64,000 nt of DNA from NCBI GenBank assembly GCA_964187785.1, contig OZ076409.1, positions 9,982,001-10,046,000 of the forward strand, given 5' to 3'. This document shows positions 1-64,000 of the stretch, piece by piece. The notes under the pieces were generated by a model that worked only from the letters and a program-made list of their open reading frames with translations, ran no database searches and was not told the origin of the DNA. This DNA comes from Amphiscolops sp. MND2022 (Eukaryota). Made by a program: the position numbers and the translations under genes. Position 1 is the stretch's first letter, and each line of letters begins with the position of its first letter.

Positions 1-400
1 GTGGCAAGTGTAATGTAGCTAGAGGTGTATATTCAATATCAGGTAGTGGTACAATATTAGATGGAAGGTTTGGTGAAACACGGGCAGTTTTAATAGCAGT
101 TGGTTGTTTGTAATTTACAAGATGTGCGACAGTATGAGGGGGTGGTATGTGAACAAATGATGGTTGAGATCGAGAGCGAGGAGTATAAGGTATTTCAGCA
201 ATAGGTGGTCTACTAATATGGGTAGATGTTGTATGAGAAGATGGTGCTGGTGAAGTAGTTGTAATATGAGATCTTGGTCGTTTTGAAGGAGTTACAGGAG
301 TTACATTACTAGTGGTAGTGGTGTTTGAAACTGAGGATTCAAATGGAGAAGGTATATGAGGAGCAGAGGGAGATGTTTCAGATGAAGAATCCAGGTTGGT
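1..400 (-). pseudogene. Ser/Thr/Pro-rich extra ORF (ORF-X) between pol and env, copy A
   Basis: Manual translation is stop-free from ~400 to 1 (NLDSSSETSPSAP...VTPVTPSKRPRSHI...SRPPIAEI...YKQPTAIKTAR). It shares these motifs with ORF 20414-20860 of copy B. No in-frame ATG is seen. Confidence 0.65.
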
Positions 401-476
401 AGTCCAGTTTGGTTAGAGGTTATTTTCACTTTTTATGTGACTAGTTGGAGCAGTGACTATAGAGTGAATGAATGTT

Positions 477-1888
477 TCACAGTTTGGATGTTGGTATGAA
501 AATACGATAATCCATTTTCGGTAGTTGTCTTAAATTATAATGAGTTTTGGTATCTCTATTATTTGTAGTAGAAGGTGACGGAGATTGGTTTTGAGATCGG
601 TGACGATTTCTGTCACGGGACTGATTGGTACCAGGAGGTTGAAGAATTGATTGAAAAGGTGGGTCAATTTTTGAAGGAGGATTAGTATTTGATGAAGTTT
701 GTGGAGAAAAGTTATTTGGTGACAAGGTTTGGTCATTATCTGAAAAGGATGTATCATCAGAAAGGGATTCATCGGAATTAAAAGGTGATGAGTCGCTATT
801 GGCATATTTAATAAGTTTTGGAATGTCTGAATTAATTGAATCAGAGAAACGCATGAAATTACGAAGGAGAGGATAGAAGAGTGATTCTTTTGGATAATAG
901 GGGCTTAAGTGGTTTCTGTGAACATGTAATGTAGAACCATCTTGTGCGAGAAGTTCATATGTAACATCGGATAATCGATCGAGAATTTTGTATGGGCCAA
1001 TCCGAAGCGGTTTAAGTTTGTCTGAAAAATGAACGTGTGCAAAATGGCGTTTAAGGACGAAGGTGCCAAAAGGAAGTGGTTTACATTCATGGTAGGTTTT
1101 AGTAATGTATGCTTGAGAATTGAGTTTTTTGAGAGTATAATAATATACAGTTGAATAAATTTGTAACATTGCAGTTTCTACAGCAAGAAACCAATGTGGA
1201 ATGGGTTTTGAAAGAGTTTTGTAAAAGAAAGGATTTAAATCTGTTTTGTCATAGTGTGAGTGTTCTGGAAGTTGTGAACAGTATTGTGAAATACAAGTTT
1301 TGGAGCTGTTACGGTTAAGGTTAAGATCAAATGTCAGTGGGATTCTGGGTCTTGTGTGAAACACTATTTCGTAAGGAGAAACATTGAGTTCTGAAATTAG
1401 TTGAGAATTGTGTGCGTAAGCATACATGTGGATTTGGAAAGCCCAATCTTCAGGAGTGTTATGAAGAAACATACGAATATGTGTTCCAAGATTTCGATTT
1501 TGTTTTTCAACAAAGCCATTTGTCCAAGGAGAATATGCTGTTCGTGGAGAGTGTCTAATACCCATAAGTGTACAAAGGTGGACCATCTTCCTTAACATCC
1601 ACGATATTCTGATCCACGATATTCTGATCCACGATCAGTGACGAGGTAAGTGGGAGGGCCATATTTGGTAATCCAATGGTGTAATAAAGTTTTAACTGCA
1701 GTTTTTGCATTGTTCGATTTGATTGGAACAGTAACAACAAAGTGGCTAAAAGCGTCAACGATAACGTGAATGTATGATTTACGTTGTGAAGGAGGATTAA
1801 TAGGTCCTTTGGTATCCATTGAGATTCTGCAATTGAAGAATGGAGCGTGTTCTGAAAACGATTTTGTTGCAGCAGTTTGAATTTTCAT
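477..1888 (-). pseudogene. Integrase (DDE core plus GPY/F region), frameshifted
   Basis: ORFs 1592-1888 and 477-1598 carry ISMDTKGP, IVDAFSHF, TDRGSEY, TAYSPWTNGFVEKQN and LRIGPYKIL. A 15-bp tandem duplication (ATCCACGATATTCTG x2, 1597-1626) repeats RGSEY at the frameshift. Confidence 0.9.
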
Positions 1889-1966
1889 GTTAAAGTGTTT
1901 GTTTTTTTGACATTCAAGACAATCATGTACAAAAATAGAGTGCCATTTTTCAAGATAAGGAATGTA

Positions 1967-4340: not shown

Positions 4341-4343
4341 GAG

Positions 4344-15776: not shown

Positions 15777-16526
15777 TTTCCCTGGGTTATTAACTCGGGT
15801 AACCATCAACGTTTTTCAAAATTACATTCTTTGTATTTGAATACTTTAACATACCATAGAATCTAATTTTAGCGTTGTAGGGAACTGTGGCTAAAGCAGA
15901 ACAGCCAAGTTAATTGCTTTTCTCATGATTTATTTATGAAATGTTTTGAAGTCCTGCTTTTACATAAACTTCGAAAGACAGGTTTCGAATTATGATTCAG
16001 ACAAAAAAGCAACATCATGCATTGGTGGAAATAAACATGAAACCGTGGAGCAAAACCAATGGAGTCTTCCGTAAATAATTGATTATTCAATCATATTGAC
16101 GTCAAAGTTTTTGAACTTTGCTGAGTATTTAAAGAAAGTGTTTTCGTTCCATCATTTTATTGTGTTTTGACGTATTTTCCTTGATTCCACAAGTTTGTAT
16201 TATTGGAAATTTGAATTTTTCAGGTTATAGCAACCACTAGAAGCTTCTTGTGGTACACCTGGTCGATTGTCATTGTGTACCAAACGGATCAATTGAATTC
16301 CGCAAACGGAATTTCATGTATAAGAACGGCTTCTGCAGTTGACGACAGTTTGTTCATTGTTTTATACAGACAAAAGGCTTTTGTTTCTGTAACTGTCCAA
16401 GCCTCTTCGCTCGTTCGAGTACAATAATTATCAGCAAAAACGAACTTCACAATCAGTTAAATTGAATATTATACTAACTTCTTTTGTTACAATCAGAAGA
16501 ATATTAGGAAATTTCGGGCCGCTTCT

Positions 16527-17462
16527 ATGAACACAGGAGTTATGATTGGGATTATCAGCGTTTATGTTACATTTACTCTTGTTGCAAAAACGGCAAATGG
16601 CAATTCCAATACATTTCGTTCCACGGCATTCGAAGACCCAATAAATGAGAAACGTTTGGACGTAGGAAAAGCTATTGGAACACGACAAGAATCATCGCGT
16701 ACAAAATGCGCTCTTGCTTGTTCTAAAAATGATGACTGCCTTTCTTTCGGTTTCTGCGGGGAGAACTCCTGCGAATTGTACAACGAAGACATTTTTTCAA
16801 CGGAGTATGGAGAGAATATTCTAGAAGAAGATTTAAGCTGCAAATATTTTGGGATGAAGACGGAATCTAAGCCAATATGCCAGCAAGATGGTGTGTTTGC
16901 AGACATACAGAGTGACGATGGAAACAGTGAGTTTTGTCCAATAAGTGGGAAGCGAGTTGATACAGTGTGGGGCCAATGGGGAGGGGAAGAAACAGTATAC
17001 CACCCTCCTGATTGGAAGATATTAAACAGGAGAGAGTCCGTTATTGAAGCAGCCCATGGGGGGCTTCTTGACTTGGGAGATTCTGAGCGAGCTTTAGAAT
17101 GGATCAAGTTTGTAGATCAAGAGATGACATGGGAGGATGCCAAAGCGAATTGCGAAAAAGTCAATGGAACTTTGTTCTCCAGAGTAGATGGAACTGAGGA
17201 ACAGTTAGATTTTTTGCTACAGGGAATGAATGGAAACTCACACTGGTTAGGGATCTGCACTGAGGATCACGAAGTCTGGAAATCAGTGACGGGTAATATC
17301 GTTAGCTCAACGTTATTGCATTGGAAACCTGGACAGCCAAATAATGTAGGAAATCAACAAAGATACGTCGCTAACCACCCTGCGTGGGAAAGAGTTCCTT
17401 TCATTGGTTTGGCTGATGACGAAAACTCAAATGTCAAGAGGTCAGTTTGCGACATGTTGTGA
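16527..17462 (+). CDS. Secreted PAN/apple plus C-type lectin domain protein, 311 aa, single exon
   Basis: Hydrophobic N-terminus (VMIGIISVYVTFTLVA). PAN-like cysteine pattern SRTKCALACSKNDDCLSFGF...CELY. CTLD motifs MTWEDAKANC...GTL, HWLG, WKPGQPNN and terminal SVCD. ORF is intact. Confidence 0.8.
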   Translation: MNTGVMIGIISVYVTFTLVAKTANGNSNTFRSTAFEDPINEKRLDVGKAIGTRQESSRTKCALACSKNDDCLSFGFCGENSCELYNEDIFSTEYGENILEEDLSCKYFGMKTESKPICQQDGVFADIQSDDGNSEFCPISGKRVDTVWGQWGGEETVYHPPDWKILNRRESVIEAAHGGLLDLGDSERALEWIKFVDQEMTWEDAKANCEKVNGTLFSRVDGTEEQLDFLLQGMNGNSHWLGICTEDHEVWKSVTGNIVSSTLLHWKPGQPNNVGNQQRYVANHPAWERVPFIGLADDENSNVKRSVCDML

Positions 17463-30500: not shown

Positions 30501-33369
30501 GATCATGAAAAAGGATTTTTCAGGAGCGAGTTTAAGATGGTTTTTCGTACCAATAATGTGTAATTGTTCAATAATTTGAAACATATGTTTCTTTGAGTTT
30601 GAGAGAATTAAAATGTCATCTATATGAACAAGAGCAAAACCTTTTTCTATAAGAGTTTTAAAGAAATTTGACTTTTGAAAGAAATTTGGAAGTCCTTTAA
30701 GTCCAAAAAAGGCACGTATAAAAGCAAAGAATTTATCACCAGATGAAAAACTGGATAGGTTTATGGTTTCGTCGTCTAGAGGAGTATGTGCACAGGCATA
30801 CATGAGGTTTATTGCACATTTGTAATTTTTGTTTGCGTGTATCACATTGTTCTGTATTGGAGTTAAGGTGTCGACCATCTAATACACATTTGACAGAATA
30901 AATCACTACCTGTCGTTATGTTGCTTTTCGAAAATAATTGAACTAACTTGAGTCGATAACAAATATAACGATCAACAACTTGAGTCAAGTGATTTTATCA
31001 ACTTTTGACAAACAACAGCAGCCGCCGGCGGAACAACTAAATAAATATCAATGGCTGATTGAGGCCCACACGTTCAATTTTTGGTTGAGAGCTCTAGTAT
31101 TGTTATTAAAAATCATCCCCGAGCATTTTCAGGCTCGATTTTAACAGAATCGATCGAGAATTTGAAAATTCTTAAAATTTCTTCTTGTTTACATTAGTTT
31201 AACTTTGAATTTTTTAAGACGAAAGTTGAAAAAGTTACAGACAGCTGACTGTGTGCAAAAATCGGACTTTCGGCCGTTTTTCTATTCTTTCAAAAAATGA
31301 CTTCAAGTTGACTGATAAATCCACAAATTTTAGGCAAGTCTTTTTTTCAACTAACTCCCACAAAGCTATTGAATCTATCGACATACTTTGATTTAGAAAT
31401 TATCAACTGTTTTCGAAATATCATGCATAGTTGTAACATAAAATTCTCCCGAACAAATCCAATCTGACAATTTATATTTTCTCGAAAACACTGTAAATTA
31501 CCTAAACATGAGGTCCTTTCATGAATGGTTTTTAAACATGTAATTAACATTTTCAACAGTTAAAAACAGAGTTTTAATTAACACAATTTTTAACAAGCCA
31601 ACATCGGCTCGTTTTGAGCTGTTTCGTCGCAGAGCCTTTTAAAAAGCTAGTGGTTTCTAGAAATGATTCATCTCTGACATTACACACTCCAGCCTATAAT
31701 GAAACAGCCTTTAACACTGTTTATCTCCTTAACAAAGAGGCTTTTGCTTTTGTTGTTCAAACGCAGCTTGTACTGAAAGGGAAAACATACGATGCAAGAG
31801 AGCACAAGGGCGAAGTTAATTGGAAACCCTTTTACGATGACTCGATGATTTCCGGCGGACATCATTGATTGATTTTGACAGTAGTTGATAATATTTTTGG
31901 AAACAACAAGCCGATGTTTCCGACGGTAGATGTTCCTCTTTTTTTTTGGGAACAACTACTCGAAATTTCCAACAGTAATTGTCCAAAACACAGTAAGATA
32001 CAATTCAGAACGTAACAAACTTACAAAAGATCAAGGCTGTACAAATGAACTATAAGTCGATGGTAAATTGTACACTTTAACTTATAAAACGAAAAGTAAC
32101 CTAAAAATTGAAAAATTGTCAACAAAAAATTTCTTACCGTGAAATTATTAGTTACAATCAAAATTTCATGTGCACTAATAGGTAATTGAACTATGTCGTA
32201 ATGATTTGCTGAATGTTCCAACAACAAATACCAAGTTGTAGACGGCAGGGGTGATAAAAAATATTTGTAGGTCACAGAAATGGCAATAATATTGTATACA
32301 AAAACTGTTTTCAGAACGTTATCAAATACAATATTTTGTTGTGATTTTTTACAATAAGTGTTTTACCATAAGAAAAGAATTCGGAGACATGAGTTGGGTA
32401 CCAACTACTTCCAATCTGGCGGAGAGACTTTTCAGTCAAGCTAAACACTTTGTAAATCAATATCGAAAAAATGCTGCCCATACATCTCGAAAGCCAAATT
32501 TTTCTAATGACAAACGAACAGGTTTGGGATGCTGATTTGATCAACAAATTGATTTGGTTGATCTTTCAAACAATCTTTTTCATAAACACAAAAATTGCAA
32601 TTCCTGTTTCAACAAAATTCAGAATAACAATATATTGTTCTTTGTATCCCAATAGTATTGCAATACAACAATTAACACCCCTGGTTGACGGTCATTCGAG
32701 ACTCCAGGGCAGTTTTTCAAACTTCAAGTTGGTGGCACTTTTGGGTAGACTCAGATTTCGTTGAAAAGTTCAAAAATAGATTCAGATCTTGTTTTTGTCG
32801 TATAATGGTTTATGCGTGTTCTGTTTAACGATAACGAAATGCCATTCAATTTTTATATATCGAGCCACACTGTACAATTTACTGAGCACAAAAAATAACT
32901 CGGACAACAAGAAAGTTCAACATGTTAAGTTAAAAGTAGCACAACTGTATGCAAGACAGGGTGGCTAATGATTGAAGCAACGTGACGATCAATAGATGGT
33001 CTGATTTCTGAAACAAAAACAATGAATTTAATTACCACTCCATTAATTTCAATTTGAAGTCGTTTTGACGAAAGAAGAAAACAAATGTAAGATGTTCAAC
33101 CAGGTGACCAGTTTTGAGTTGACTAATATCACTAACATAACCTTTATGTAAATATAAACGAAACAACCAGGATATAACTGAAATGGTAGACAAACTTACC
33201 ACGGTCTTGAACGAGGGTTCTTCTTTTCGGCACTTTGTGCAAACCTCTGACAGTTTGTGACGGTTGCGGGTGAACATAGGTGGTGGCTTTCTCATAGCTG
33301 ATTAAAACATCACAATTCGGTTCGTCAACATCAGGTCTTCGGCACAAAGAAGAGAGGCGCTCCTCAGAA
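27561..33369. repeat. Segmental tandem duplication, second copy (includes copy B' at 27561-30891)
   Basis: Homology starts at GGAAGATGTAAG (21196/27561) and ends at CTCCTCAGAA (27004/33369). Scattered substitutions separate the copies. Confidence 0.95.
32375..32555 (+). pseudogene. hAT transposase C-terminal fragment, duplicated copy
   Basis: Same sequence as 26010-26190 within the duplication (PTTSNLAERLFSQAKHF...). Confidence 0.6.
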
Positions 33370-35058: not shown

Positions 35059-35993
35059 CTGTAACATAGAAGTTACATGAATAAAAACACATGTTTTGTT
35101 CGAAACCGCGACTATCTTTTCAAAATCATTGAGTTTCTCTTATCGTTTTGGGCATGACACACTGATCTTTTCAAAAAGTTACAAGTCGATCAATTTTTGA
35201 CATACCTTGTAATGACTAACCGTACTGGTACATTCGGGTGAGCAGGCCTCCTGCTTTCCGCTTTTGCTGCTCCTTACAATACTTTGACTTGTAGTGCTTC
35301 TTCAGCAGTTTTTGGCGCAATTGATAAGGCCGCAGAGCTGACACGTTCTCTCCATGAGCTTGAACTGCTCTCGTGGCATTCGGGGACAGACTTTGCGGTG
35401 GCATAGGATGTTGGACAGCTTGTCCACAACGTCACAAGTGCCTAAAAAGAACTCCATATGTCAGTTTAAGTTTTTCCGTGAAAGAAATCAGCAAGCTTGA
35501 TTACGTTTTACCACGTAACAACTTGATCACAAAAATTATTGTTTATCGAACCTTGGCCGCACTGGACCTTCTCTGGTGTCTTTCGATGAGACGTGGATGG
35601 TGTAGTCGGCAGTGTTGCCATTTGATCTCTACTGAAAAATTCCAGGAAGTCACTCTTGAGTTATAAACCATTCATTATTGTATGAAATTAACTATAAAAT
35701 GATTGTCAAATATATACATTCAACAACTCACAACAAGTCACACTATTCCAGGAAGTCACACTTCCTCATAGATCATTCCTGCGACAACTGTCATAAAACA
35801 TTCAATAGTAAATAAGGTAACAGAGGGAAAGTCAACTCGATGCAGTCAAAAATTGCGCTAACGACGGGGATCAAAATTTCGACTGATGGAATTCTCAGAG
35901 AAAACGTCACGGCGAAAAGATATTACATGGAAGTATAAGTTGAACAGCGATTATTTGGATTATTCTATTGTCCTTTATCTACCATAAGTTTAA

Positions 35994-36202
35994 AATCTGC
36001 ACTGAAATGATAATGAAGCGGTCAAAGACATCTTGTCTGATAAAATAAGTTAGTTTTGGATATGCACTGAAATGATAATGAAGCGGTCAAAGGGACCTTG
36101 TCTGATCATAAGTAAGTTTCAGATATGGACTGAAACGATAATGAAGCGGTCAAAGGGACCATGTCTGATAAAATAAGTAAGTTTTAGATCTGCACTGAAA
36201 TG
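35994..36202. repeat. Tandem repeat of ~64 bp, three copies plus a partial copy
   Basis: GCACTGAAATGATAATGAAGCGGTCAAAG recurs at 35999, 36064, 36127 and (partial) 36192. Confidence 0.85.
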
Positions 36203-36916
36203 AGTCGGTATTGAACGTTGTCTGTTTTCCTCTTCAAGGCGGCCTTTTTTAGTGTATTCTTGTATTTCCGCATTGCAGTGTGGTAATTTAATGAACCATG
36301 TCGTTGGGGGGTTGAATGACGTTGTAATTGTGGGGCCATTGACATGTACTTCATCTTTTTGAATTTGGCTCTCGCAGACTCATCTACTTCGAAAACATAC
36401 CCTTTGGGATCAATCAAGTCCGACCCTGTTTACCACATCGTTTGGAGCAAGCCTGAGACTTTGGTAAGTCTTCCATTATGTGGGATAGGAATTCCTTTTT
36501 CTCCTTTTACTCTTTTTGTTTCGTTTTGGTTGTTTTGCTTTTGTTTCTTTGTGAAAGAGTGATAGTTTACGCGTGTATTGTTTCGTGTGTTTGTGTTCGT
36601 AGGCTCTCATCTATGACGCAATGTATCCGCGCGTTCTTGGCTATGTGTTTTCTTTAGTTGGACGCTTCAAACAATACAGTGTGGAGTTCAAGGAGCAGGG
36701 CGATGCGGTTTATTGCTATGTGCGGACGTGGCATGAGTTGCGACTGAAGCGAGTGTGTGTTCTTGTGGAGGACCTTCATGCCCCACTGCCTCGTGCTGAG
36801 CTGCCATGCTTGTGTCGGTGATCGCCAATAGTGTGGGTGATTTGAAATTCCCTGTGGCGGTTGTCGGTGGCACTTCGTCATTGATTAACTGTTTGAATGC
36901 TGTTTAAGACGATGGG

Positions 36917-48966: not shown

Positions 48967-49299
48967 AGTTATAACCACCAATTCATCTTAATCCCCCGCC
49001 CCATGAATATATGTCTAGACTATCGATTACTGACTAATGTATCCGTAAATGAATGTATATTATTTATAATCCAGACGTATCTTGAATTTGATGTACCTAT
49101 TTTATATTCAATGCTATAATTTTTACTGTAAATTTATTCTGATTTATACTACCAACACAACGCTGAATTGACTCTCCATCGTCAGTTGTCTTCCCATTCT
49201 AAGACCTAATATCTGCAGCTCTATTAGTGTCTCTTAATGTACTAAGTCCTCAAATGCAAGATCTCAACAAAATAAATACAAACAACAAGTACATTAACT
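48967..49299 (+). mobile_element. 5' LTR of copy D (333 bp, AGTTA...TAACT)
   Basis: 5-bp terminal inverted repeats AGTTA (48967) and TAACT (49295-49299). The last T is shared with a TGGTGC PBS-like motif. A related copy lies at 12240-12538. Confidence 0.65.
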
Positions 49300-49351
49300 G
49301 GTGCAACCAACACCATTTTCCAACTCTTTCCTTCCATCATTTCTGAATTTT

Positions 49352-49610
49352 TGTACTAATCACACCTCAGTGATTCGACAATTTGTCGGTACAACATTTC
49401 TTCTGTACTAATCACAATGTCAAGTGATTCGACCTCGTAGTCGGTTCATTTCATCTTCTCTTCTGTACTAATCACATCTCAGTGATTCAGCTACGTGCTG
49501 GTACATCCCTTCTTTCTGTACTAATCACTTTTCAGTGGTTCAACTAATTGCTGGTACATTCATCTTCCCTGTACTAATCGCTTTTCCAAGTGATTCAGCT
49601 TCACGCTACA
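49352..49610 (+). ncRNA. Five tandem putative three-way-junction RNA motifs in the 5' leader of copy D
   Basis: TGTAC-T-AATCAC-loop-GTGATT-stem3-GTACA at 49352, 49404, 49464, 49517 and 49570. Loops vary while stems keep pairing. Confidence 0.6.
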
Positions 49611-50050
49611 TTTTTGCAATGCTTGTTTTCCTAATGCTTCTCATTGAAAAAATCCTCTCTTCTCTCTTTCGATAACTTTCCCTTGCCTTCTTTCCCATCA
49701 CATTTTCCTTTCACCACTTCCTCTCCTTTTATTCCCCTTCTCTCCGTATATTAACCATACCTCCTTTTCACCGCTACTCCTTTTTATCATCCCTTCCTCC
49801 TTTCTCCCCTCTCCCGTAAGAATTTACTTTTTCTCCATTCTAACCCTTTTCTTGCATCAATCCAGCTTCTCTTAATCCCACTCTTTCTTTTATTCCCTCC
49901 TTTATCTTTATCCACCTCTCTACTTCCATTTTAACCATAATCTCCTCAGAATACACCGCTTTTTTAAACCACTCCCTACTGAACCATCATTCATCCTGAC
50001 ACTATCTTGGACCGTATTTGGTTACACTTTCTCCCTCATCGACATTCTTA

Positions 50051-53000
50051 ATGTCTGATCCTCCATCACCCCTCATTCCTCTCCCTTTTGTTTGCGAAAA
50101 CACCTCTCAACGTATTACCCGTGACATTTCTCACACCCTCTCCAAATTTCTTGACAATCTCATCTATAATATTATCGCACCTCTTTCTTTTGAAACCTAC
50201 CCAGAAAATATTTATACTACCCCCCTCATTCGTGAACACCACGACTCTTATTGATACACATTCTGTTGTTGAAACTCCTGATGAACCTCCATTTTCTATT
50301 CCTTTTACTTCTCCCATAAACCATTCTGATACCTTTAAAAAATATATCCATCATAATACCATTTATATTCCCATTGCGAATGTATTTACCACCTTTCTCA
50401 ATAACCTCCAAGAAAAAAATAATCTTTTACCTAAACATGTTTTTAATCCATCCTCAATCCAAACCCTTCTTCAAAAAAAATCTCTTTTTGATCTCCATAA
50501 TATTGACCAATTCCGCAATAATGAAAAAAAACCCTCATCACTGGCGTACTGCTGATATTCTCCAAATTCATCATTTTCAATACCAATTTTTTTCAAAATC
50601 TCACTCTCAATACAAGTACTAAAGATCAAATTCAGATATATTCTCTTTTTCTTAGAAAATTTTTCAGACATAATTGCCAACTAGTTTGGCACTCAAAATT
50701 CCAATCAGCTTGTATCAATTTCCCCAACATCTTACTAACGATGAACTTTTACCCTTTATTGATACCTCTGACAATCACCACCCTCAATATTATAATTTTC
50801 TCGAATTTCCTCCTTCCCATTTCGCCTATACATATATGACTCCAATAGTTTTGATAAAAGTCTTAACTTTCCCCCTCCCATTCGTCCTTATGCAAAACAA
50901 CACCCTCTCCCTCCTTCCATCGACAAAACTTCAAACGTCTCTCTCCAAACGCTTCCCTCCTCTTTAAATGTAATAGTTAATACAAACCCTACTACAAATC
51001 AAAACCTTCCTCCCTCTACATCTCAAATTACCACAACAACTGAAAACCTTTCTACTTCCCATACACCAAATCAATATACTACTTCTAACACTCCCCATGT
51101 AATACCTTCTAATAATGTACAACTTCCAGTTTATCAAATTCCTACCATACCTCCAATCCCTATTTCATTGAACAATACACTTTCTACTCAACCTCTCACA
51201 CAAAATCCTCCACTTTATTTCCCCCAGAATAATTCTCTAATTAATCAAAACCCTCCATTATCCTTACCTATACCGCCAAATCCTTTCAATTCCCAACCTT
51301 CTATCTCTACCCTTCAGTCTACATCATATAACCCCTATGTCTCACTTCACCATGGCTTTCAAAATTTTCACACCAATTCTTTTCAGCCACCTAATTTTCC
51401 TCCTAATCATCTTCCACCATCTAATTCTACATTACCATTTAATCCTCCTTCTTCTTACCCCTCTCCCATTTTCAAATGCCTCCATCTGTTCCTTTCGCTG
51501 CTCTCTCAGACCCCTTAAACTTTTTGATAGCTTAGATCATACTTATCCTTCTGAAAAATTCTTAGCCCACCTTAGTGCTCTTGTAACAATTCAGCTTGGT
51601 CCCCAACCTGTTGACTTTCAATCATATTTAACCTGGCATTCTCGACGCATGTCCCTCCTCTATTGTTCCTTAACAGGAAGTGCCTCTTATTGGTATGAGC
51701 GCCTCCCACAAGTTCATTAAGATGATTGGTCACCCTTCCTCCAAATTTTTATGAATCAGTTCTATTCCCAAAAACACGCATACCATGCTCAAAATGAAGC
51801 TCTTTCCCTTATCAAAAAGGAAAATGAAAATGTTCGTCACTACGCTCTTAAAGTTGAAACCCTTGTTAAACAAGTCTGGTATAATGAATACCCCTCCATC
51901 GTTAACCTTAAATGAAAAGAATTTTTCACACGTGTTCTCCCTAAAAAATTAAAAGATTTCGCCAATAACCGCCAAGTCAAACATATTTCAAGTTCACTGG
52001 AACCTTCAATTCCTTTTCATTCTCTTGTTAATATGGTTGATTCTGAAGACATCACACTTGAAAAAATCAAAACTCAAGAACTTTTTCTTGAAATTAATAA
52101 TCTTTCAAACACCTTCATACAACCTTCATACAAAATACAACTGTTCATGATTCTTCTCCCGAACCTCCACAAATCCAAGCCGTGGATCCTAATAAAATAT
52201 CTAAGCCCCAATATAAAAACTTTTGTACTTTTTGCCACAAAAATAATCACCATGTTTCAACTTGCGTTCGTAGATTCAATATTCTTAACGAATCTAAACC
52301 AGAATCTCGATCTCGAACTCCTTCCTTCTATCAACATTTTAAAACCCCCTCTAATATTCCTCAATATTCTCGCTACCGTAGTAGAAGTAATAGTAATCCT
52401 TACCGTAGATCTTCTCGTGACACTCGATATAGATCTCGCTCTTACTCGCGCTCGCATTCTCGTCCTAGATACAATGATAAATCTCACCCTCATAACTATT
52501 CGTCTTAATACAACCGTGATCGATCTAGAAATGACAAACAGTATAACCAAAACTCCCACAAATCACACTCTTCTTCTTCACGTCCATTTTATAATTCTAT
52601 CTCTTCTCGTAGTCCATTTAAATATTATCCTCGTTCTCGTGAACGTTCCACAAGTTATAGTAACCCCTCCTCTAAAAGATACAATCTCCTTATTGCCCTC
52701 CTTCCAAACCACGTAACGATCGCTATCGTAGTAGATCACATTCAAATTCAAAGAACTACTCTCAATTTCGATATAATCCCTCTATTAGTCTTACTCACCC
52801 ATCAACACCGCCTCTTCAAAATAATACTTCTACAGAACCCTAATTTGAAACTAATATGTACCAACCCACTACTTCTGCTTCACAATACTCCTCACTCTCC
52901 ACTGAACACGCTAACGCTATTACACCTTCAACTTGGTTTGTTAATTTATATCTTTTTTTATACCCAGTGAAGATACTTCGCTCCCTTCTAAATTGGAAAT

Positions 53001-53960
53001 CCTATTTTTACTCGATAATGGTGCATCTATCTGTGTTTTAAACTGACCCACCTTTACAAATGTAGCCGATCACTTTTTAAAGTGTTCAAAACATTCTCCT
53101 CATAATGATGAGTTCAAAACTTTAACTGTCGCTAATAAAACTGAAGTACCTATTTTATACAATGTCATCCTCACCCTGCATACTTCTATTCATGGAAGTA
53201 CTCGCACACTTATTATTCCTTTTGCAGTAGCAAACATCAAAGACAATATTCTTGGAACTCCTTTTTTGAAAAGTACGTTAAAACCCTTAATATTGAAAAT
53301 ATGTTTCTTACATTTAACACTCCTCATGAATCTCGTGTGAACACTGTCCCTATTACAGCTCATAAGGAAAAAGACTATCCTTATTTGTCTTACATATACA
53401 CCATCAAAGTTAAAAATAAAATCTATTTTAAACCAAACGCCTCTCAAGTTATCCATTTCCCAATCCAACCACTTCTCCCTTTAACTTTTCAAACTTCTGA
53501 TAATGAAGTTATATTTCCTTCTACCCCTCACCCATTCTTCAATACTTCATGTTTTAATTCTACCTTTAATTTCCTCCAGGTATATCAAAATATTAAAACT
53601 GAACCTACTAGTTGTTCCGTTATTATTCAAATTATCACTCATCATTCTGCTATTCTCACCCCAGGATACATCGGATACAACGAATTCCCCGCAACTAATA
53701 ATAAACCTCTCCATCACAAAGTTAAAGATGTAAACTACTTAATACACACCGTATTTCTTTCATATTACCCAGATTTATCTGAACCAAAACCTCTTCTCCG
53801 TCGTTTTTCCCTGCGCAAACCTAATGTTGAAATTCATAATTTACAAACCATCTCAAGTTTTAACCCTTCCTCTTCCTTCATTGCCGTACTCACCTGATAC
53901 TCAACAGTTCCTCAAAATATTTAAATTCCATAAGTATGATGTAACTGACGAAGAATATTT
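50051..53960 (+). pseudogene. Gag (Pro/Ser-rich N-terminus, capsid-like region, zinc knuckle, RS tract) and protease of copy D, first copy
   Basis: YPSEKFLAHLSA...WYERL capsid-like block, CTFCHKNNHHVSTC knuckle, RSRSYSRSHSR tract, LLDNGAS protease motif and DNILGTPF. Confidence 0.85.
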
Positions 53961-56890
53961 ACAACTCTGCTCTATTCTTGTTAAATATAGAAGTTGCTAT
54001 GCAACACAAAAAAATGACGTTGGTCAAATAGCCACTCCTTTTCGAGTTCGCCTCAAACCTAATGCTAAACTCCAAACCCAAAGACCACCAATTCCCAACC
54101 TTCTATCTCTACCCTTCAGTCTACATCATATAACCCCTATGTCTCACTTCACCATGGCTTTCAAAATTTTCCCACCAATTCTTTTCAGCCACCTAATTTT
54201 CCTCCTAATCATCTTCCACCATCTAATTCTACATTACCATTTAATCCTTATTCTTCTTACCCCTCTCCCATTTTCAAATGCCTCCATCTGTTCCTCTCGC
54301 TGCTCTCTCAGACCCCTTAAACATTTTGATAGCTTAGATCATACTTATCCTTCTGAAAAATTCTTAGCCCACCTTAGTGCTCTTGTAACAATTCAGCTTG
54401 GTCCCCAACCTGTTGACTTTCAATCATATTTAACCTGGCATTCTCGACGCATGTCCCTCCTCTATTGTTCCTTAACAGGAAGTGCCTCTTATTGGTATGA
54501 GCGCCTCCCACAAGTTCATTAAGATGATTGGTCACCCTTCCTCCAAATTTTTATGAATCAGTTCTATTCTCAAAAACACGCATACCATGCTCAAAATGAA
54601 GCTCTTTCCCTTATCAAAAAGGAAAATGAAAATGTTCGTCACTACGCTCTTAAAGTTGAAACCCTTGTTAAACAAGTCTGGTATAATGAATACCCCTCCA
54701 TCGTTAACCTTAAATGAAAAGAATTTTTCACACGTGTTCTCCCTAAAAAAGTAAAAGATTTCGCCAATAACCGCCAAGTCAAAAATATTTCAAGTTCACT
54801 GGAACCTTCAATTCCTTTTCATTCTCTTGTTAATATGGTTGATTCTGAAGACATCACACTTGAAAAAATTAAAACTCAAGAACTTTTTCTTGAAATTAAT
54901 AATCTTTCAAACACCTTCATACAACCTTCATACAAAATACAACTGTTCATGATTCTTCTCCCGAACCTCCACAAATCCAAGCCGTGGATCCTAATAAAAT
55001 ATCTAAGCCCCAATATAAAAACTTTTGTACTTTTTGCCACGAAAATAATCACCATGTTTCAACTTGCGTTCGTAGATTCAATATTCTTAACGAATCTAAA
55101 CCAGAATCTCGATCTCGAACTCCTTCCTTCTATCAACATTTTAAAACCCCCTCTAATATTCCTCAATATTCTCGCTACCGTAGTAGAAGTAATAGTAATC
55201 CTTACCGTAGATCTTCTCGTGACACTCGATATAGATCTCGCTCTTACTCGCGCTCGCATTCTCGTCCTAGATACAATGATAAATCTCACCCTCATAACTA
55301 TTCGTCTTAATACAACCGTGATCGATCTAGAAATGACAAACAGTATAATCAAAACTCCCACAAATCACACTCTTCTTCTTCACGTCCATTTTATAATTCT
55401 ATCTCTTCTCGTAGTCCATTTAAATATTATCCTCGTTCTCCTGAACGTTCCACAAGTTATAATAACCCCTCCTCTAAAAGATACAATCTCCTTATTGCCC
55501 TCCTTCCAAACCACGTAACGATCGCTATCGTAGTAGATCACATTCAAATTCAAAGAACTACTCTCAATTTCGATATAATCCCTCTATTAGTCTTACTCAC
55601 CCATCGACACCGCCTCTTCAAAATAATACTTCTACAGAACCCAAATTTGAAACTAATATGTACCAACCCACTACTTCTGCTTCACAATACTCCTCACTCT
55701 CCACTGAACACGCCAACGCTATTACACCTTCAACTTGGTTTGTTAATTTATATCTTTTTTTATACCCAGTGAAGATACTTCGCTCCCTTCTAAATTGGAA
55801 ATCCTATTTTTACTCGATAATGGTGCATCTATCTGTGTTTTAAACTGACCCACCTTTACAAATGTAGCCGATCACTTTTTAAAGTGTTCAAAACATTCTC
55901 CTCATAATGATGAGTTCAAAACTTTAACTGTCGCTAATAAAACTGAAGTACCTATTTTATACAATGTCATCCTCACCCTGCATACTTCTATTCATGAAAG
56001 TACTCGCACACTTATTATTCCTTTTGCAGTAGCAAACATCAAAGACAATATTCTTGGAACTCCTTTTTTGAAAAGTACGTTAAAACCCTTAATATTGAAA
56101 ATATGTTTCTTACATTTAACACTCCTCATGAATCTCGTGTGAACACTGTCCCTATTACAGCTCATAAGGAAAAAGACTATCCTTATTTGTCTTACATATA
56201 CACCATCAAAGTTAAAAATAAAATCTATTTTAAACCAAACGCCTCTCAAGTTATCCATTTCCCAATCCAACCACATCTCCCTTTAACTTTTCTAACTTCT
56301 GATAATGAAGTTATATTTCCTTCTACCCCTCGCCCATTCTTCAATACTTCATGTTTTAATTCTACCTTTAATTTCCTCCAGGTATATCAAAATATTAAAA
56401 CTGAACCTACTAGTTGTTCCGTTATTATTCAAATTATCACTCATCATTCTGCTATTCTCACCCCAGGATACATCGGATACAACGAATTCCCCGCAACTAA
56501 TAATAAACCTCTCCATCACAAAGTTAAAGATGTAAACTACTTAATACACACCGTATTTCTTTCATATTACCCAGATTTATCTGAACCAAAACCTCCTCTC
56601 CGTCGTTTTTCCCTGCGCAAACCTAATGTTGAAATTCATAATTTACAAACCATCTCAAGTTTTAACCCTTCCTCTTCCTTCATTGCCGTACTCACCTGAT
56701 ACTCAACAGTTCCTCAAAATATTTAAATTCCATAAGTATGATGTAACTGACGAAGAATATTTACAACTCTGCTCTATTCTTGTTAAATATAGAAGTTGCT
56801 ATGCAACACATAAAAATGACGTTGGTCAAATAGCCACTCCTTTTCGAGTTCGCCTCAAACCTAATGCTAAACTCCAAACTCAAAGACCTA
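51287..56890 (+). repeat. Internal tandem duplication of 2802 bp (51287-54088 and 54089-56890)
   Basis: ORF pairs 52033/54835 and 53301/56103 are offset by 2802. The junction AAGACC-ACCAATTCCC at ~54086 shows CAA microhomology. Confidence 0.95.
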
Positions 56891-58100
56891 CCAAAGTTCC
56901 CATTTACTATAGGGAAAAACTTAAAAAACTCCTCGATGGATTAGAAAACACAATATCATTCGCGAAATTGGTTCTACTCCGTCTGATAAATCCATTTATG
57001 GTACCACATTTTAAAATCCTATCATTATTATCTCCAAAGGAGATACTATTAAAGTCGTCCTACGCGCAAGACATCTCAACTCTAACACCGATCAATCTTT
57101 TGAATCTTGGCATTTTGAACCTTTAGCTCCTCAACTTGCACGCGCTAACAAAAAATTTAAATCAGCTATTGATCTCATGTATGCTTATGCTCATGCCCGT
57201 TTAGATGAGGAAACTATAACCTTAACTAGTTTCTCATCTGGAGATAAACTTTACACCTTTACCCAAGGTTTTAATTGCCTTAAAGATCTGCCCAATTTTT
57301 TCACAAAACAAATGTATTCATTCTTTCAAAAACTCATTGATCAAGGCTTTGCACTTGTTTACATCGATGATATTCTTCTTCTTGGTCTTACAAAACTCAT
57401 ATGTTAGATTTATTTGAACAATTACATCAAATTTGTTACTCTAACAATCTTAAAATTGCTCCCGAAAAATCACTTTATATTCTCCTCACTGTCAAATTTC
57501 TTGGACATGAAATTGGCAACAACACTATTAAACCCATCTCTTCTAAAGTTGATGGGATACACAAATTAAAAACACCAATTTCTAAAGCGAATGGATGCGC
57601 TTTATCGGATCAATGAATTTTTACTACTCCAAATTAATTAACAATATACATAATTCCTTAAAACCCTTTTACACTCTTCTCCATGCCGATGTTTCCTTTG
57701 AATGGACTTCTAATCTTGACAAACTTTTTAATCAAATTAAACTCTCTCTCTCTCTCTAAAGATGCAGAACTCGCTATTCCTAATACTACTCATCCATTTT
57801 ATATAACCGTTGATGCTCCCTAATTGGTCCAGGCGCAGTCTTATTTAAACCTAACTCCAATAATAAAATGCAAGTAATCTCCTACAACTCTCGTATTTTA
57901 ACAACTCAAGAACAAAAACTTTCTACATACGACAGAGAACTTTGTGCTATTACCTTTGCTTTCTTAATATGAATTTATTGTAATTGGTTCTAAATTTCCA
58001 ATAACTATCTTCACAGATCATACCCCGTTCTTTTCTTTTTCATCCGTAAAGGTAACCTTACTCCCAGACAATATAAAGCTCAAATGTTATCAACCAAAGT
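56890..58100 (+). pseudogene. Reverse transcriptase and RNase H of copy D
   Basis: IDLMYAYAH, ALVYIDDILL, VKFLGHEIG, ITVDA and LSTYDRELCA motifs, with frameshifts. Confidence 0.9.
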
Positions 58101-59129
58101 CTCCAACTTACAAATTATTCATACAGCTGGTACAATTCTTACTGTTGCTGATATGCTCAGTAGAGATTTTTCAACTAATGATAACAAAACATGCCAACTT
58201 CAACATAAAACCCTTCCTCCACACATCGATTTTCTTCAACTCAAAAATGATAACATCTTAAAACCAATTCACTATTTAGTCAAACACGAAGATGTACTCC
58301 CTACACAAAAAAATGATTCACATCTCATTCTAGTTGATTATGGTGATGATCAGTTTACCATTCGTATCCAAGATAAAGGAAATATTGTTAAATATACCCC
58401 TCTTGATTCTTTCTCTTTTCAATCTGTTTCATCATTTTCAAATAAATATAAAAAGCGTATTAGGAATAAAGTTAAAACTTTACTCCAAGAAAACCCTCTC
58501 CTAAATGAAACTGATTTATATGAAACTGACGATCCCGTCATTAAACGAAACCCTACAAAAGACTCACATAAATCTCATGAACTACACATCCTTTTCACTG
58601 AAATACAAAACCACAATTTTACTAATAATCATTTGTCTCAAGACATTTTAACCAACATTGCCAATTCCTCTTCTAATGTTACCAACAATACTAACATTAA
58701 TGCTATAACCCAAACCCCTAATAAATCTACATCTACTCACTATTTGTCATTCTTTGACCCATCATTTTTGCCCAATATAAAGCATTTGAGAATTTATTCC
58801 TACGTTCGGATACTCTTCTGACACTACCTATTCTGCTTCAAGCTCAAAAGGATGATACTGTCCATTGTACTGTCTACAAATGGTTAAAACAAAACAAAGA
58901 CCTCATTCTTTAACTCCAATTCTTTAAGCAAACTCCTTTTTTTACACGTACTATCGACAATTCCAACGCCTATATATTGACCCAAACTCACATCTCATTC
59001 AATATTATACACCTAATTCTCGAATCTTTGAAGAAATCCTTATCAAAACTCAACGTTCTATTATTCAAACCCGCATATGTTTACCATTTAAACTCTTTTA
59101 TGCTGCTTTTAATAAAACTCATTCTCATG

Positions 59130-60290
59130 GTCACTCCGGCGAAAAACTCTAGTAAAACATTTAACCAATTTTATTATATTCCTCACCTGCCTTTGAAGTT
59201 CTCGATTTTTATTCATGACTGCATTGAATGTCAAACAAATAAAAATTTATTTAAAAAAGTTAAAAATTCCTATTTAACCCCAAAATATTTCTCCTCTACC
59301 ATTATATGAAAACGCCACTCATTCTAATTACCGAATATCAATGGATACTAAAGGCCCCATTTCTCCCTTTTCTCAAAATAACTCATATATTTTTGTTATC
59401 ATTGATGCTTTCAACCACTTTGTTGTTACTAACCGAGCTCCTCACATTATTTCCAAATATGCAATTCAAACTCTTCTTCATCATTGAATTACAAAATTTG
59501 GACCCCCACAATATCTCCTTACTGACCGAGGTATTGAATATATAAACCAAGTTATGGCCCATCTATGCTCTCTCTTTTATATTAATCACTCACCTCGTAC
59601 TCCATATTCTCCCTGGATAAATGGTTTAGTTGAAGTCCAAAATCGTACCCATGGAACTCATCTACGTCTTTTTTTTACAAAACGCTCCTACGAACTGGTC
59701 ATTCCAAACTCAAATGTATGCTTACGCCTATAATACTACCCCTCTTTCTCAACTTGAACTCTCCCCTTATCAGATTGTTTTCCATACCCACCCTCGCATT
59801 CCTTTAACCTTCTCTCTTAACCTACATCGTGTTTCCTCTAACAACTGTATTGCAACATATTGTGATTCTCTTCCCTTCATACACACTATAGTACTCAAGA
59901 GCTTAACCCTTTTTTCCACTCACTCCTTGATAAACCTACCTTCTCATGGCTCTTATCTGCTGAACATGCAATGTTAGAAATATATTCAACTGTTTACCGC
60001 CATATAAATCATAAATTAAATTCTCAAAGCTCTACATTTGAAACAACCCACTTGAAACAGTTACCTCTTCATACTTTCGTTATCCATACGAGTTTTAAAC
60101 CTGTCAAATTTTCGCAAAAACTTAAACCTCTTGGGCTTGGACCAACTAAAATTCCTAAACATTTTTCTGACGTGACATATGAACTTATGTCTCAAGATGG
60201 CTCTACCGTTCAACTCATAGAAACCATATATTACCATATTATCCAAAAGAACCTGTAATTTTTCCATACCTCAAACAATACCACTCTACT
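59130..60290 (+). pseudogene. Integrase of copy D
   Basis: HSHGH...IHDCIECQ zinc-binding domain, ISMDTKGP, LTDRGIEY, PYSPWINGLVEVQN and GPTKI region. Confidence 0.88.
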
Positions 60291-62389
60291 TTTTCCCTTA
60301 TCAATATTCCCGATACTGATCCTTATCAGGACACCTTTTCTCAATTTTCTTCATTAGATATACAATCAAATCCTGATCCTCCTTCAACTCAAACTTCCAA
60401 AAAAGATACAAACAAATCAAACGATTCCACCCCTACTCCTAAATATCAAAACCTTTCATATTCTGCTTCTCTACAAGATCATTTAGATATTACACTTGAT
60501 TCTACTGACTCTGATTTGGAATTGCTTCCGAATCCAATCTATTATTCAAACTCATCCAATAATTCCTTTCCTCAAACCTTCCCTCGTAATGCTGACTCCC
60601 CAAACGTCTCGTTAACTCCTCCAACCGACCCCCAAACTGTACCCAATTACACCAGAGCTCCTCATGCCCCATACAACTTACGTTAGCTTACCCTAAACAC
60701 CCCCCTCCCCGAAATTACAATTCCTCCAGACCGAACGTCAGCTTCCCTCCATAATTTAATATTCATCCTTTAATTGGATTAACTGACTGTCCCTATTGTC
60801 CCTGACTATCCCTAGTGTCTTGACTTTTAATCAATCTGACACACGACGATGTAATTACTAACAGTTTCTTACCAACCTTTCTTCATTTTTCGTTCACGAA
60901 TTCTAGCTGAACGTTTGCTTTTCATCAATTTCAATTTTGTCTTTAAAATTCATAACTATATTTTTGTACCAAGCAGTGTACCAATCTTTGTCCAACCCTC
61001 AACACTCTCTATTAAAATTCACTACATTCCTCTTTTTGCTTCCATCCTGGATCTTACTGTCTTTTTGTCTGACTCCACGGATTCTACCTCTCAAACCCCT
61101 TCTTCCGTTTCTACAGATATTATCTTCTCACAAAATTCTCTCCAAATTTTTCAACAACCTCCTCTCAATCCTATACCCGTAACTCCCTCTTTAAAGACCA
61201 CTCCCATCAACGCTCTTAGTCATACTCCTATTAAAACCATATCCTCAACAAACTCAAACTTCTTTAACTCTTCCACTTTCAGATACTGAATTTCCTCTTT
61301 TTGCTTTTAACATATCCTCCACACTATCTCCACCTCCCTCTCTTCTTCATATTCCTGATCCTAGTGATATTGATCCTCTCTTACTCAGAAATATCAATAA
61401 TCCAACAGCAACAGCGAGCGCCTAAATCTATCCTCATTCCTACTTCCATCAAGTCTTTTCGTAGACGCTCTCAATTTGATAATTCTCTTCCAGTTCCTCC
61501 ACCTTGTTCCCATCTCCCATCCCAATCTTCACTTCCCCCACCTAAATCCTTTAAAATTCCTGCAATTGAATCGTTTGATTCCCTTCAAAAGAACACTGAT
61601 CTCAGTGAAATTGATTCAACAACTTCCTCTCTTCTTTATCCCCGTCTTTCTCCTTCTAATTCCGCTTCTAAATACACTACTTCTTCTTTAGATATCCTTC
61701 TCGAAACTACTTCTGAATCCACCATTCGCCAACCACCTCGTCATAGATACAACCTCCGTAATAATCGTCGTCCTATTCTTCTCTCGCAAGTACAAACTCT
61801 TCTCTTTTACGACATCACGCTCAATCTCTTTCAACAGACTCTCTTTCGATTCCTGATAACGCTCCAACTTCTGAAGTCGGTACTGCTTTCTCTCAACGCT
61901 CATCTCTTTCAACTTACAACGAAACTGGTCATCTCTTTTCTCGGCCAATTTCTCAACATCCTAGTGTTCTTTCATCTGATAGTCATTTGTTTAAAATTGA
62001 CCTAACTACTGATCAATACTCTACTCCCCCTACACCTAATCGTGTTGACTATCCTTTAATTGTCAACGATATGCTCATCAACAGTCCTCGTCAAGATCTT
62101 CGATTCCTATAACTTGCCACCCATAAACTTAGTTCCAATCCTTACATTTCAAATGAACGTCACCGTAAAGAATTTCACCGTCTCAATAACACAAACCTAG
62201 AAATTAAAATTGAAATTACTGCTAAATTCCCCAATTAAAGCCCCCATCTAATTCCTTCTCACACTACTGTCCACTTCAAGTCTTTGCCTCATCGTTTCAT
62301 TGCCTCTAATCTTAGTCTTTTTGAAGGCGACCATCCTCCCTTTCGCCTTTTACACGGCTCTATCACCTTTCTTGACACTCTCACCTTCT

Positions 62390-64000
62390 TAAAATATCCT
62401 GCTCATTTTTAAATTTGCCTCTCTCTTTCTTTACTATCTCTCCTATTTTCTCTTTTCTTTTTTCTCAATCACTTCCTCAACTGACTCTTCCTCTGATCAT
62501 GTTGATCCAAACGATCCCCACATTTCTGATCTTTTAGTTTCTCATTATGATTGCCCCAAACAACATAACTTAAGACAATTTAGCCTCACTCGAGTTCAAC
62601 CTTGCTCTCAAGCTTTCTCTTCATTTGAAAATACTCGCGCTATTGTAAAGGTTTTTGTCCGTGCCGAAGCTAAACGTCTCAAAGCTTGGACATGTGAAGC
62701 CTACGTTAAACGTGAAAAATTTGTCTGTGCTCAGTCTGATTACAAATACCGCCGCCATGATCGTTCTGATTACCACCAAAACACCATTGTACGCCCTCGT
62801 ACTCTTGACCCTGCGGGATGCAAATATGCTATCCGCCACCTAAATGGAACTAATAATCCTCAACTCGATGCTTTTAATTACACCAACTCCTTTACATTCT
62901 TTAATGATATTCAAAAACAGCGCCTCCTGTAAACTAAACAACCTCCTTTTCGTATCACCAAACTGAATACATTTCACTATGGTGCTTTTGCCTGGTTTGC
63001 CAATTCCCGATTGGTATTAAACTCAACTCTTGAAGAAAAAGCTGTCTGTTGGGACCGCTATGAATACAATATTGAAAAAGATAGCTGTCTCTCATTGTAA
63101 AAGAAATTGAAATTACCTATGATGATAAAGATAATAAACTTATTCATCATGGGCACACCTTACTCTGCCTCCACGACAAGGGTTTTTGTAAACCCACCAT
63201 TTTGACACCCTTCACCATTGTTTGCTTCCCTGAAGAACTTTGTTTACTCTTCTCCCTTCATTCTTTATTGGACGAATGTCCAAACTCAATAACCGCTACT
63301 GGCTTGAAACTGAACACTTTTTTAACAATCTTTAACAACGCCTCTACTACTTCATCTGACACTCCTTATCATGATACTAAATCTCAAACCCACCTCTCTC
63401 GTTTTGAAAATTTCCCCGAAAATAAAATGTTTTGTAACAAACCCACTTTTTTATAAATAACTCAATACCCTGACCTCTTCATTGCATATAAAGAAGGTTT
63501 TAACATGCATACTGGTTAACCTAATCCTCTTCAACTCCCTCAAAATAAACAATATAATCAACTCACCACCCAATTAAATTCTGGAAAATTATTCTATACC
63601 CAAGACAAGTTTCTTTTCCCTGCTCTAAATTTTTCTAATAACTTTGCACCATTGATTATGAAGCTCACATCAACACCAAAACTGGTTATTCTAATAACCA
63701 TGTATTTTAAAGTATGTCCGTTGCTGAACCTAATACTCTTCGTACTATATGCGAAGTCGAACGCACTCAACTCTTAACAATTCTTGCAATGTCTGTTAAA
63801 AATCCAAAACTTGCTGGTTTCCTCTTAACTCAAAACCGTAGTAATTTTTTGTATGTCGGAGGCTCTACAGCCTGGCTCTATGATTGTCCTCATCACCTTT
63901 CTCCTTTATATATTGCTGAACAATGTTACGATAAAATTCCAGTTAATTATCTTGATACTGTATGTTGACCCCATTACACTCCAAACCTTTGAATATGCAA
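62390..64000 (+). pseudogene. Env-like glycoprotein resembling class III viral fusion proteins; disrupted, continues beyond window
   Basis: Hydrophobic signal-like segment, then HYDCPKQHNLRQFSLTRVQPC, WTCEAYVKREKFVC, LCLHDKGFCKPT..TPFTIV and GSTAWLYDC...CYDKIPVNY...YVDPIT. Stop at 62930 and later frameshifts. Confidence 0.7.

Follow-up and report, generated by a model that had tools for sequence, protein, structure and literature searches.

A tandem array of short repeat units in the leader of an LTR retrotransposon of Amphiscolops sp. MND2022 is a real, selected and apparently undescribed RNA motif. The array lies in a 64,000-nucleotide stretch of contig OZ076409.1 (positions 9,982,001 to 10,046,000, referred to here as the window), and its host is a decayed, env-carrying Ty3/gypsy element of about 20 kb. 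Quite possibly the array is a multivalent signal, specific to the family, at which Gag binds for packaging or dimerisation, and this reading is put forward tentatively.

Host element and array in the window

The host is a Ty3/gypsy element with env, an errantivirus in the broad sense, with LTRs, a PBS, gag, the RT-RNase H-integrase order and a downstream env (Table 1). Its 3' LTR lies outside the window (L031:4699 to about 5040) and agrees with the 5' LTR at 294 positions, with 31 mismatches (about 90% identity). The broken gag contains a 2.8-kb tandem duplication (51287-56902), and the knuckle and tail that it encodes are also found in Gag of better-preserved relatives. The env product was assigned from its Pfam match (E 1.8e-27). 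With regard to a gB-type env and a place in the clade of 'ancient' errantiviruses, which is marked by RNase H plus a mini domain, no sequence match was found in PDB, and the bridge region has no Pfam match above the cut-off. Relatives in better shape carry two extra ORFs 3' of env, and in one copy (L037) three large ORFs, one in the pol-env gap (2-1411) and two after env (4319-5971 and 6569-7507), have no Pfam match. The first of two small hydrophobic upstream ORFs is deleted in the window copy. Such ORFs are conserved between the array and gag in both env families (L229 at PBS+415 and +571; L133 at PBS+770; L136), and tandem hydrophobic upstream ORFs are present in an env-less family too. The position at which a polypurine tract is expected (L025:1485 and its equivalents) is not polypurine and reads as an A-run, CCC and then a G-rich stretch, which is common to both env families.

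The array consists of five repeat units of about 52 nt each (TRF period 53) and begins 43 nt 3' of the PBS. Within each unit, two P1 strands enclose one U followed by the P2 and then the P3 hairpin, and the five tandem units with their stems, as described in the original prediction, were confirmed at all five starts. The mismatches that had been pointed out in P1 of unit 2 and P3 of unit 4 are indeed present, but they are private decay, as relatives are paired there. What had been taken for a small deletion in unit 5 is really a 308-nt deletion relative to L003, which runs from 49606 into a small downstream ORF and also takes a conserved small hydrophobic ORF. A near-copy of the window neighbourhood about 250 kb away (L002, at G000:C1:10290881, and L244) has the same 308-nt deletion but four units, which suggests a segmental duplication. 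Complementarity of the repeated TGTACT to AGTACA at the LTR end (49288-49293) had also been proposed. However, the end of the LTR is at 49296, and AGTACT is what the majority of relatives have, so the complementarity reflects a decayed base and the GTAC palindrome; pairing of the array with the LTR end was rejected, AGTACA being decay and not the LTR terminus.

Compared with shuffles, the window array had a folding z-score of -4.1 on the plus strand and -4.0 on the minus strand, and because these values are nearly equal, energy z-scores give no polarity. In a structure-descriptor scan of the whole window, tight three-helix arrangements clustered at the array (11 of 18 rows). The statement that the array matches no recognised motif agrees with Rfam, which gave no match to the array at E<=10 and, for four loci from the two families, none at E<=5. 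Hammerhead and HDV-like ribozymes are defined by a catalytic core consensus, and no such core motif was found in the array on either strand, where junctions have 0-1 unpaired nt and Rfam gave no match. The hallmarks of a flavivirus-type xrRNA are a 5' end that pairs into the junction and a pseudoknot between a loop and downstream sequence; the array does not conform to this type, as its loops and linkers, both pyrimidine-rich, vary freely.

Table 1. Features located in the window (window coordinates)
Feature	Position	Strand	Remarks
Sister-family copy	828-7300	-	5'-truncated
32-nt repeat	14066-15776		53.5 nearly perfect copies
Host-like ORF	16461-17462	+	PAN and C-type lectin domains
Young multi-copy element	31500-33300		unrelated to LTR families
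65-nt triple repeat	35985-36203
5' LTR	48967..49296	+	decayed; boundaries from 30 related loci; TG...TA-type ends in relatives
PBS	49299..49309	+	11-nt, tRNA-Met(CAU); one mismatch in window copy; 2-nt spacer before; tRNA-Met genes L169, L171, L172
Unit 1	49352..49393	+	P1 strands on either side of U, P2 hairpin and P3 hairpin
Unit 2	49404..49448	+	private mismatch in 3' P1 strand
Unit 3	49464..49505	+	P3 stem of alternative type
Unit 4	49517..49558	+	U.G in P2; private mismatch in P3
Unit 5	49570..49606	+	308-nt deletion removes 3' P1 strand
Second small hydrophobic upstream ORF	49607..49675	+	tail remaining; ORFs of 45-48 aa and 37 aa conserved in relatives
gag	50051..56990	+	broken; one CCHC knuckle and Arg/Ser-rich tail
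pol	57021..60728	+	RT, RNase H, integrase; broken
Unannotated ORF between pol and env	61188..62409	+	broken
env-like glycoprotein	62498..64000	+	Pfam PF24664; runs past window end

Selection on the stems

Units across the family were parsed by anchors in the sequence and not by pairing (306 units from 79 leaders), and stems were compared with loops and linkers only among copies with equal parsed unit number. Variable sites amounted to 1/120 in stems versus 13/79 in loops and linkers among 16 four-unit copies, 1/150 versus 12/101 among 9 five-unit copies, 2/180 versus 24/115 in 4/6 copies of a second subfamily, and 6/120 versus 37/79 in 7/8 representatives across subfamilies. Stems are thus nearly invariant, and loops and linkers vary freely, as had been remarked earlier. 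Over the 306 units, pairing was 91-93% in register and 3-40% when the strands were slid. The recurrent P3 types were GAC/GTC (61 leaders), AGC/GCT (57), GAT/ATC (13) and AAC/GTT (11), and the recurrent P2 types were TCA/TGA (64), TCA/TGG (48) and CCA/TGG (21), a series that fits a sense-strand path through U-A, U.G and C-G.

In an alignment of 42 units, the rows of which were chosen for intact anchors, the covariation score was 0.207 compared with 0.119±0.010 for shuffled and at most 0.047 for slid alignments, and pair counts were UA 26, CG 9 and UG 7 at P2.3, GC 23 and AU 17 at P3.2, and AU 20 and GC 16 at P3.3. When pairs with two-sided changes and further pair types were counted conservatively, 194/500 and 276/500 shuffles, respectively, reached the observed value. 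That these event-counting measures do not exceed shuffles points to few independent events, namely compensatory changes at about five pairs, G.U fixed twice and A.C fixed once. Among stem types that are not Watson-Crick, only sense-strand G.U is common to at least 10 leaders (48 and 10 leaders), and singleton decay is strand-symmetric (21 G.U versus 22 A.C). The fixed A.C is found in P2 of one unit type of older subfamilies (5 leaders) and counts against a strict sense-strand polarity.

The inner lengths of the hairpins vary (7-22 nt for P2 and 10-20 nt for P3), and the loops have no invariant unpaired G. The sequence face that does not vary is made up of the 5' UUC, the P1 strands, the lone U and, in P2 as in P3, the first pairs, with the unpaired 5' UUC kept in 327, 317 and 315 of 339 units. 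The compensatory changes in P2 and P3, together with the varying loop lengths, suggest a structure in the sense RNA, and the secondary structure of P2 and P3 is conserved. The claim of covarying stems thus stands for P2 and P3 across subfamilies and fails for P1, in which there is no compensatory change.

Two possible registers of P1

Four of the five P1 pairs never vary, and the fifth deviates by one unpaired cell only. No unit differs from the others in its P1 strands, which leaves the 3' strand free to pair either within its own unit or with the one that follows. In predicted folds of six arrays, the probability of P1 pairing within its own unit was 0.00-0.27 and mostly about 0.01, the probability of pairing with the strand of the next unit was 0.6-0.98 in 22/23 links, and the neighbour register was predicted to be more stable by 5-17 kcal/mol. 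When the window units were folded singly, a three-way junction formed only in units 1 and 3 of the five; across the family, 103/126 fully paired units gave a three-way junction when folded singly, with 118 imperfect units set aside. The own-unit register is favored by the complete P1 strands found at both ends of arrays and by the order of transcription, in which a strand's own partner would come first. Of the predicted three-way junction, the P2 and P3 hairpins are upheld, and each unit may either be closed by its own P1 or belong to a chain with three hairpins to the repeat. That P1, the junction pairs and the unpaired 5' UUC do not vary implies either a sequence-specific reader or that both registers are needed.

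Retention of the array across the family

The exact motif pattern had 843 matches in the genome (430 + 413) and 0 for a reversed control. Arrays hold 3-7 units, the number changes by whole units, and in older subfamilies there are about seven types of unit, each specific to its position. When young loci were picked by their gag sequence, 29/30 had the PBS and 4-6 units, and the 30th starts inside an array, apparently split by a nested insertion. Together with the conservation of stems over loops, the compensatory changes and the variation in loop length, this retention supports the prediction that the leader contains a multimerised RNA structure under selection.

No non-autonomous amplified derivative, in which the array would have outlasted the genes, was present among 20 young loci, all of which had gag and pol. 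A scan for arrays with the same P1 and another first P2 base found none (39 matches versus 113 in the control). The pattern scan gave 0 matches in viral contigs and 4 single matches in metagenome contigs, none of which was an array or near retroelement genes, and these were taken as chance. A literature search found no description of the motif in the papers within its reach.

Primer and primer binding site

The primer was identified as tRNA-Met(CAU) by its match to the tRNA-Met genes, and it is presumably of the elongator type, judging from G1-C72 and the T-loop. At three aberrant loci (L214, L215 and L217) the family LTR end is joined to about 29-50 nt of a tRNA copy, which directly supports tRNA-Met as the primer. 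At these loci and at L166, reverse transcription had gone on into the primer tRNA for about 28-50 nt, which gave an aberrant insertion. The PBS measures 11-12 nt in 15/15 array-bearing leaders, and 14/14 leaders with an 18-nt PBS have no array. An array-family LTR end joined to a full-length PBS was seen at 5 loci only, with a different context in each.

Additionally, a box of 8-9 nt (in older copies a core of 7 nt) that could pair with positions 47/48-55 of tRNA-Met lies about 230-280 nt before the 3' LTR in L037:8545, L190:8150, L035, L025, L029 and L197, and is absent from L024, L026 and L027. This box is possibly the second part of a bipartite PBS like that of Ty3. The array itself was rejected as a bipartite PBS box (tRNA T or D arm), as no match to the tRNA of at least 8 nt was found within it in 11 stretches examined.

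A different array in the sister env family

A sister env family, with RT about 73% identical, has the same primer and a homologous upstream ORF, and its knuckle region has diverged. Its leaders (L133, L153, L177, L179 and L183) carry a different covarying array at the same position (PBS+150..480), the unit of which opens with two G/C bases and UU, continues with a 5-bp helix, a stacked hairpin and a 6-nt bulge, and ends in a closing strand. Covariation was found in three helix types. The 5' dinucleotide also covaries with bulge positions 4-5 (GG/CC in 68 and CG/CG in 63 of 140 units; 32/36 leaders), and this 2-bp contact, possibly a mini-pseudoknot, may go back to a single event. A second pseudoknot was not seen in the sister motif, and energy z-scores of the sister array, too, have no strand polarity. 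Two sister-family copies have no array, namely a pol-less copy with a 17-nt PBS (L176/L213, a single locus) and L160, in which the PBS is joined straight into gag. A supposed third family in the window was rejected because its closest matches are older sister-family copies. The simple gag-pol families, with a full 18-nt PBS and the same primer, have neither array (14/14), and a long branch, supported at 100/100, sets them off from the two families with arrays in a tree from which 5/30 rows were left out as too short.

Possible functions of the array

If the array is a packaging or dimerisation signal, it would fold in the sense RNA of the leader and form a multivalent landing pad for the element's own Gag, which would in this way pick the genomic RNA to be packaged and possibly dimerise it. 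Reading would fall to the one CCHC knuckle of Gag together with its Arg/Ser-rich tail, and the 3-7 copies of the unit would add avidity. Since every unit has the same self-complementary GUAC, P1 may pair with its own unit, with the next unit or with the same strand of a second genome, and strand exchange at P1 would be a possible route to a dimer. In the DNA copy the array sits between the PBS and gag, the classic position of a packaging signal. The presence of a different array in a sister family with the same host and primer is easier to reconcile with a reader encoded by the element than with a host factor common to both, and position, avidity-like repetition and a family-specific architecture in a shared host together point to an element-encoded protein, most simply Gag. 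Family-specific accessory ORFs, and not Gag, could also provide the reader. However, conserved exposed guanosines for NC knuckles were not found, the common loops having no G, and 14/14 simple gag-pol elements with the 18-nt PBS have multiplied with neither array, which likewise counts against this reading.

The main rival, though rather unlikely, is that the array is instead an RNA response element for the export, stability or translation of unspliced RNA, which would be read by an accessory protein (Rev/Rex-like) or by host proteins of the STAR/PTB type. The sequence ACUAAY, the QKI motif, occurs in the invariant strand of nearly every unit behind a UUC-rich linker, with P2.3 almost only U or C, and the conserved unpaired 5' UUC fits a host or accessory reader, for which the three unannotated ORFs of the element are candidates. 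Additionally, gag begins about 1 kb downstream of the array, behind two upstream ORFs and at least 7 AUGs. However, ACUAAY would be buried in helices under both P1 registers, and its repetition is missing from the sister array. In three young copies AG is depleted 3' of the array (0-2 AG versus 8-14 GA in 700 nt), but a milder depletion is found elsewhere in the element. A conserved splice acceptor 3' of the array was rejected, as L227 and L226 have no AG at all in these 700 nt.

It is improbable that the array assists in placing the primer or in starting reverse transcription and so offsets the short 11-nt PBS. The array starts 50-80 nt behind the PBS, and short PBSs and arrays occur together without exception among the leaders described above. 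However, the short PBS and the array both belong to a single branch of the tree and so amount to a single correlation; the array holds no tRNA match of the length sought, and the possible second primer box sits near the 3' end and not in the array.

There is also little probability that the array acts at the DNA level as a set of protein-binding sites, that is, as an enhancer, an insulator or a chromatin-targeting element. In ZAM, HP1a is bound by the tandem repeats of the 5'-UTR, and the repeats of Tirant number 2-6 (PMC5408687, available portions), and cell-type expression of insect ERVs is driven by the LTR plus the 5'UTR (PMC12992720, available portions); the sequence invariance of P1 and the junction would suit such sites as well. 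However, the compensatory changes in P2 and P3, the free spacer lengths and the sense-strand G.U have no rationale in double-stranded DNA, and the same kind of covariation recurs in the sister array. Neutral tandem duplication, with pairing arising from template-switch palindrome correction or CpG decay, is very improbable and largely refuted, as stems are conserved far above loops, linkers and flanks, compensatory pairs other than P3.2 are not CpG changes, and CpG sites of young gag show no excess of change (3/406 versus 126/10904, in copies that are not independent), even though unit number is free to change by whole units and P3.2 is compatible with double CpG decay.

Beyond the reading of the array as a Gag-binding signal, it is a doubtful but conceivable generalisation that env-carrying Ty3/gypsy lineages carry modular arrays of small folded RNAs, variable in copy number, as 'identity badges', which would co-evolve with their own Gag or accessory protein. 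If this is true, one family would use a strand-swappable three-helix module able to zip two genomes and its sister a mini-pseudoknot with a 6-nt bulge, and this would be the first sharply defined packaging code built from repeats in Ty3/gypsy elements. Two RNA motifs outside Rfam are added by this study, and a module of about 45 nt in 3-7 copies, for which compensatory variants occur naturally and the sister family has another module in the same cell, offers a test with built-in specificity controls.

Comparison with known systems

The choice of RNA for packaging in Ty3/gypsy elements is poorly defined, even in yeast (PMC4974528). In the accessible parts of that source, packaging determinants and Gag footprints of Ty1 fall in the first ~400-500 nt, and the 5' signals of Ty1 and Ty3 (a pseudoknot and a bipartite PBS) are single-copy, with packaging sequences not precisely defined. 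The window family resembles Ty1 and Ty3 as an LTR retrotransposon with a short PBS and a structured 5' region, and possibly with a second primer box at the 3' end as in Ty3. It differs from Ty1 in that the signals of Ty1 lie inside gag and are single-copy, and no tandem structured array is described in those parts (PMC4974528).

Insect errantiviruses offer a parallel in layout. Tandem repeats are present in the 5'-UTR of ZAM (307 bp) and Tirant (102 bp) (PMC5408687), and both they and the window family are env-carrying Ty3/gypsy elements with leader repeats of variable number. However, the ZAM and Tirant repeats are treated as DNA or chromatin elements, with no RNA fold mentioned in the portions available, whereas in the window family selection acts on base pairing. 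The 'ancient errantiviruses' with a gB-type env are likewise gag-pol-env Ty3/gypsy elements in invertebrate genomes, but the window family differs from what is available on them in its size of about 18-20 kb and its extra ORFs (PMC13524379). Small ORFs upstream of gag are known from MDG1-group elements (PMC11952523, in part), and leaders are the most divergent parts of insect ERVs according to the sections available (PMC12992720).

With retroviral packaging signals the window family shares a structured RNA between PBS and gag that is repeated or rich in junctions, and a Gag with a CCHC knuckle. According to the accessible parts of one source (PMC7599994), HIV-1's core signal for encapsidation is a tandem three-way junction, nested and with exposed G, the leader packaging signals of gammaretroviruses have paired GACG hairpins, and retroviral NC requires exposed or weakly paired G. 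The junctions of HIV-1 are nested and not repeated, whereas the units of the window family are repeated, as 3-7 head-to-tail copies of one module of about 45 nt in variable copy number. Unlike these retroviral signals, the window family has no conserved loop or exposed G, and the face that it conserves is the helix junction.
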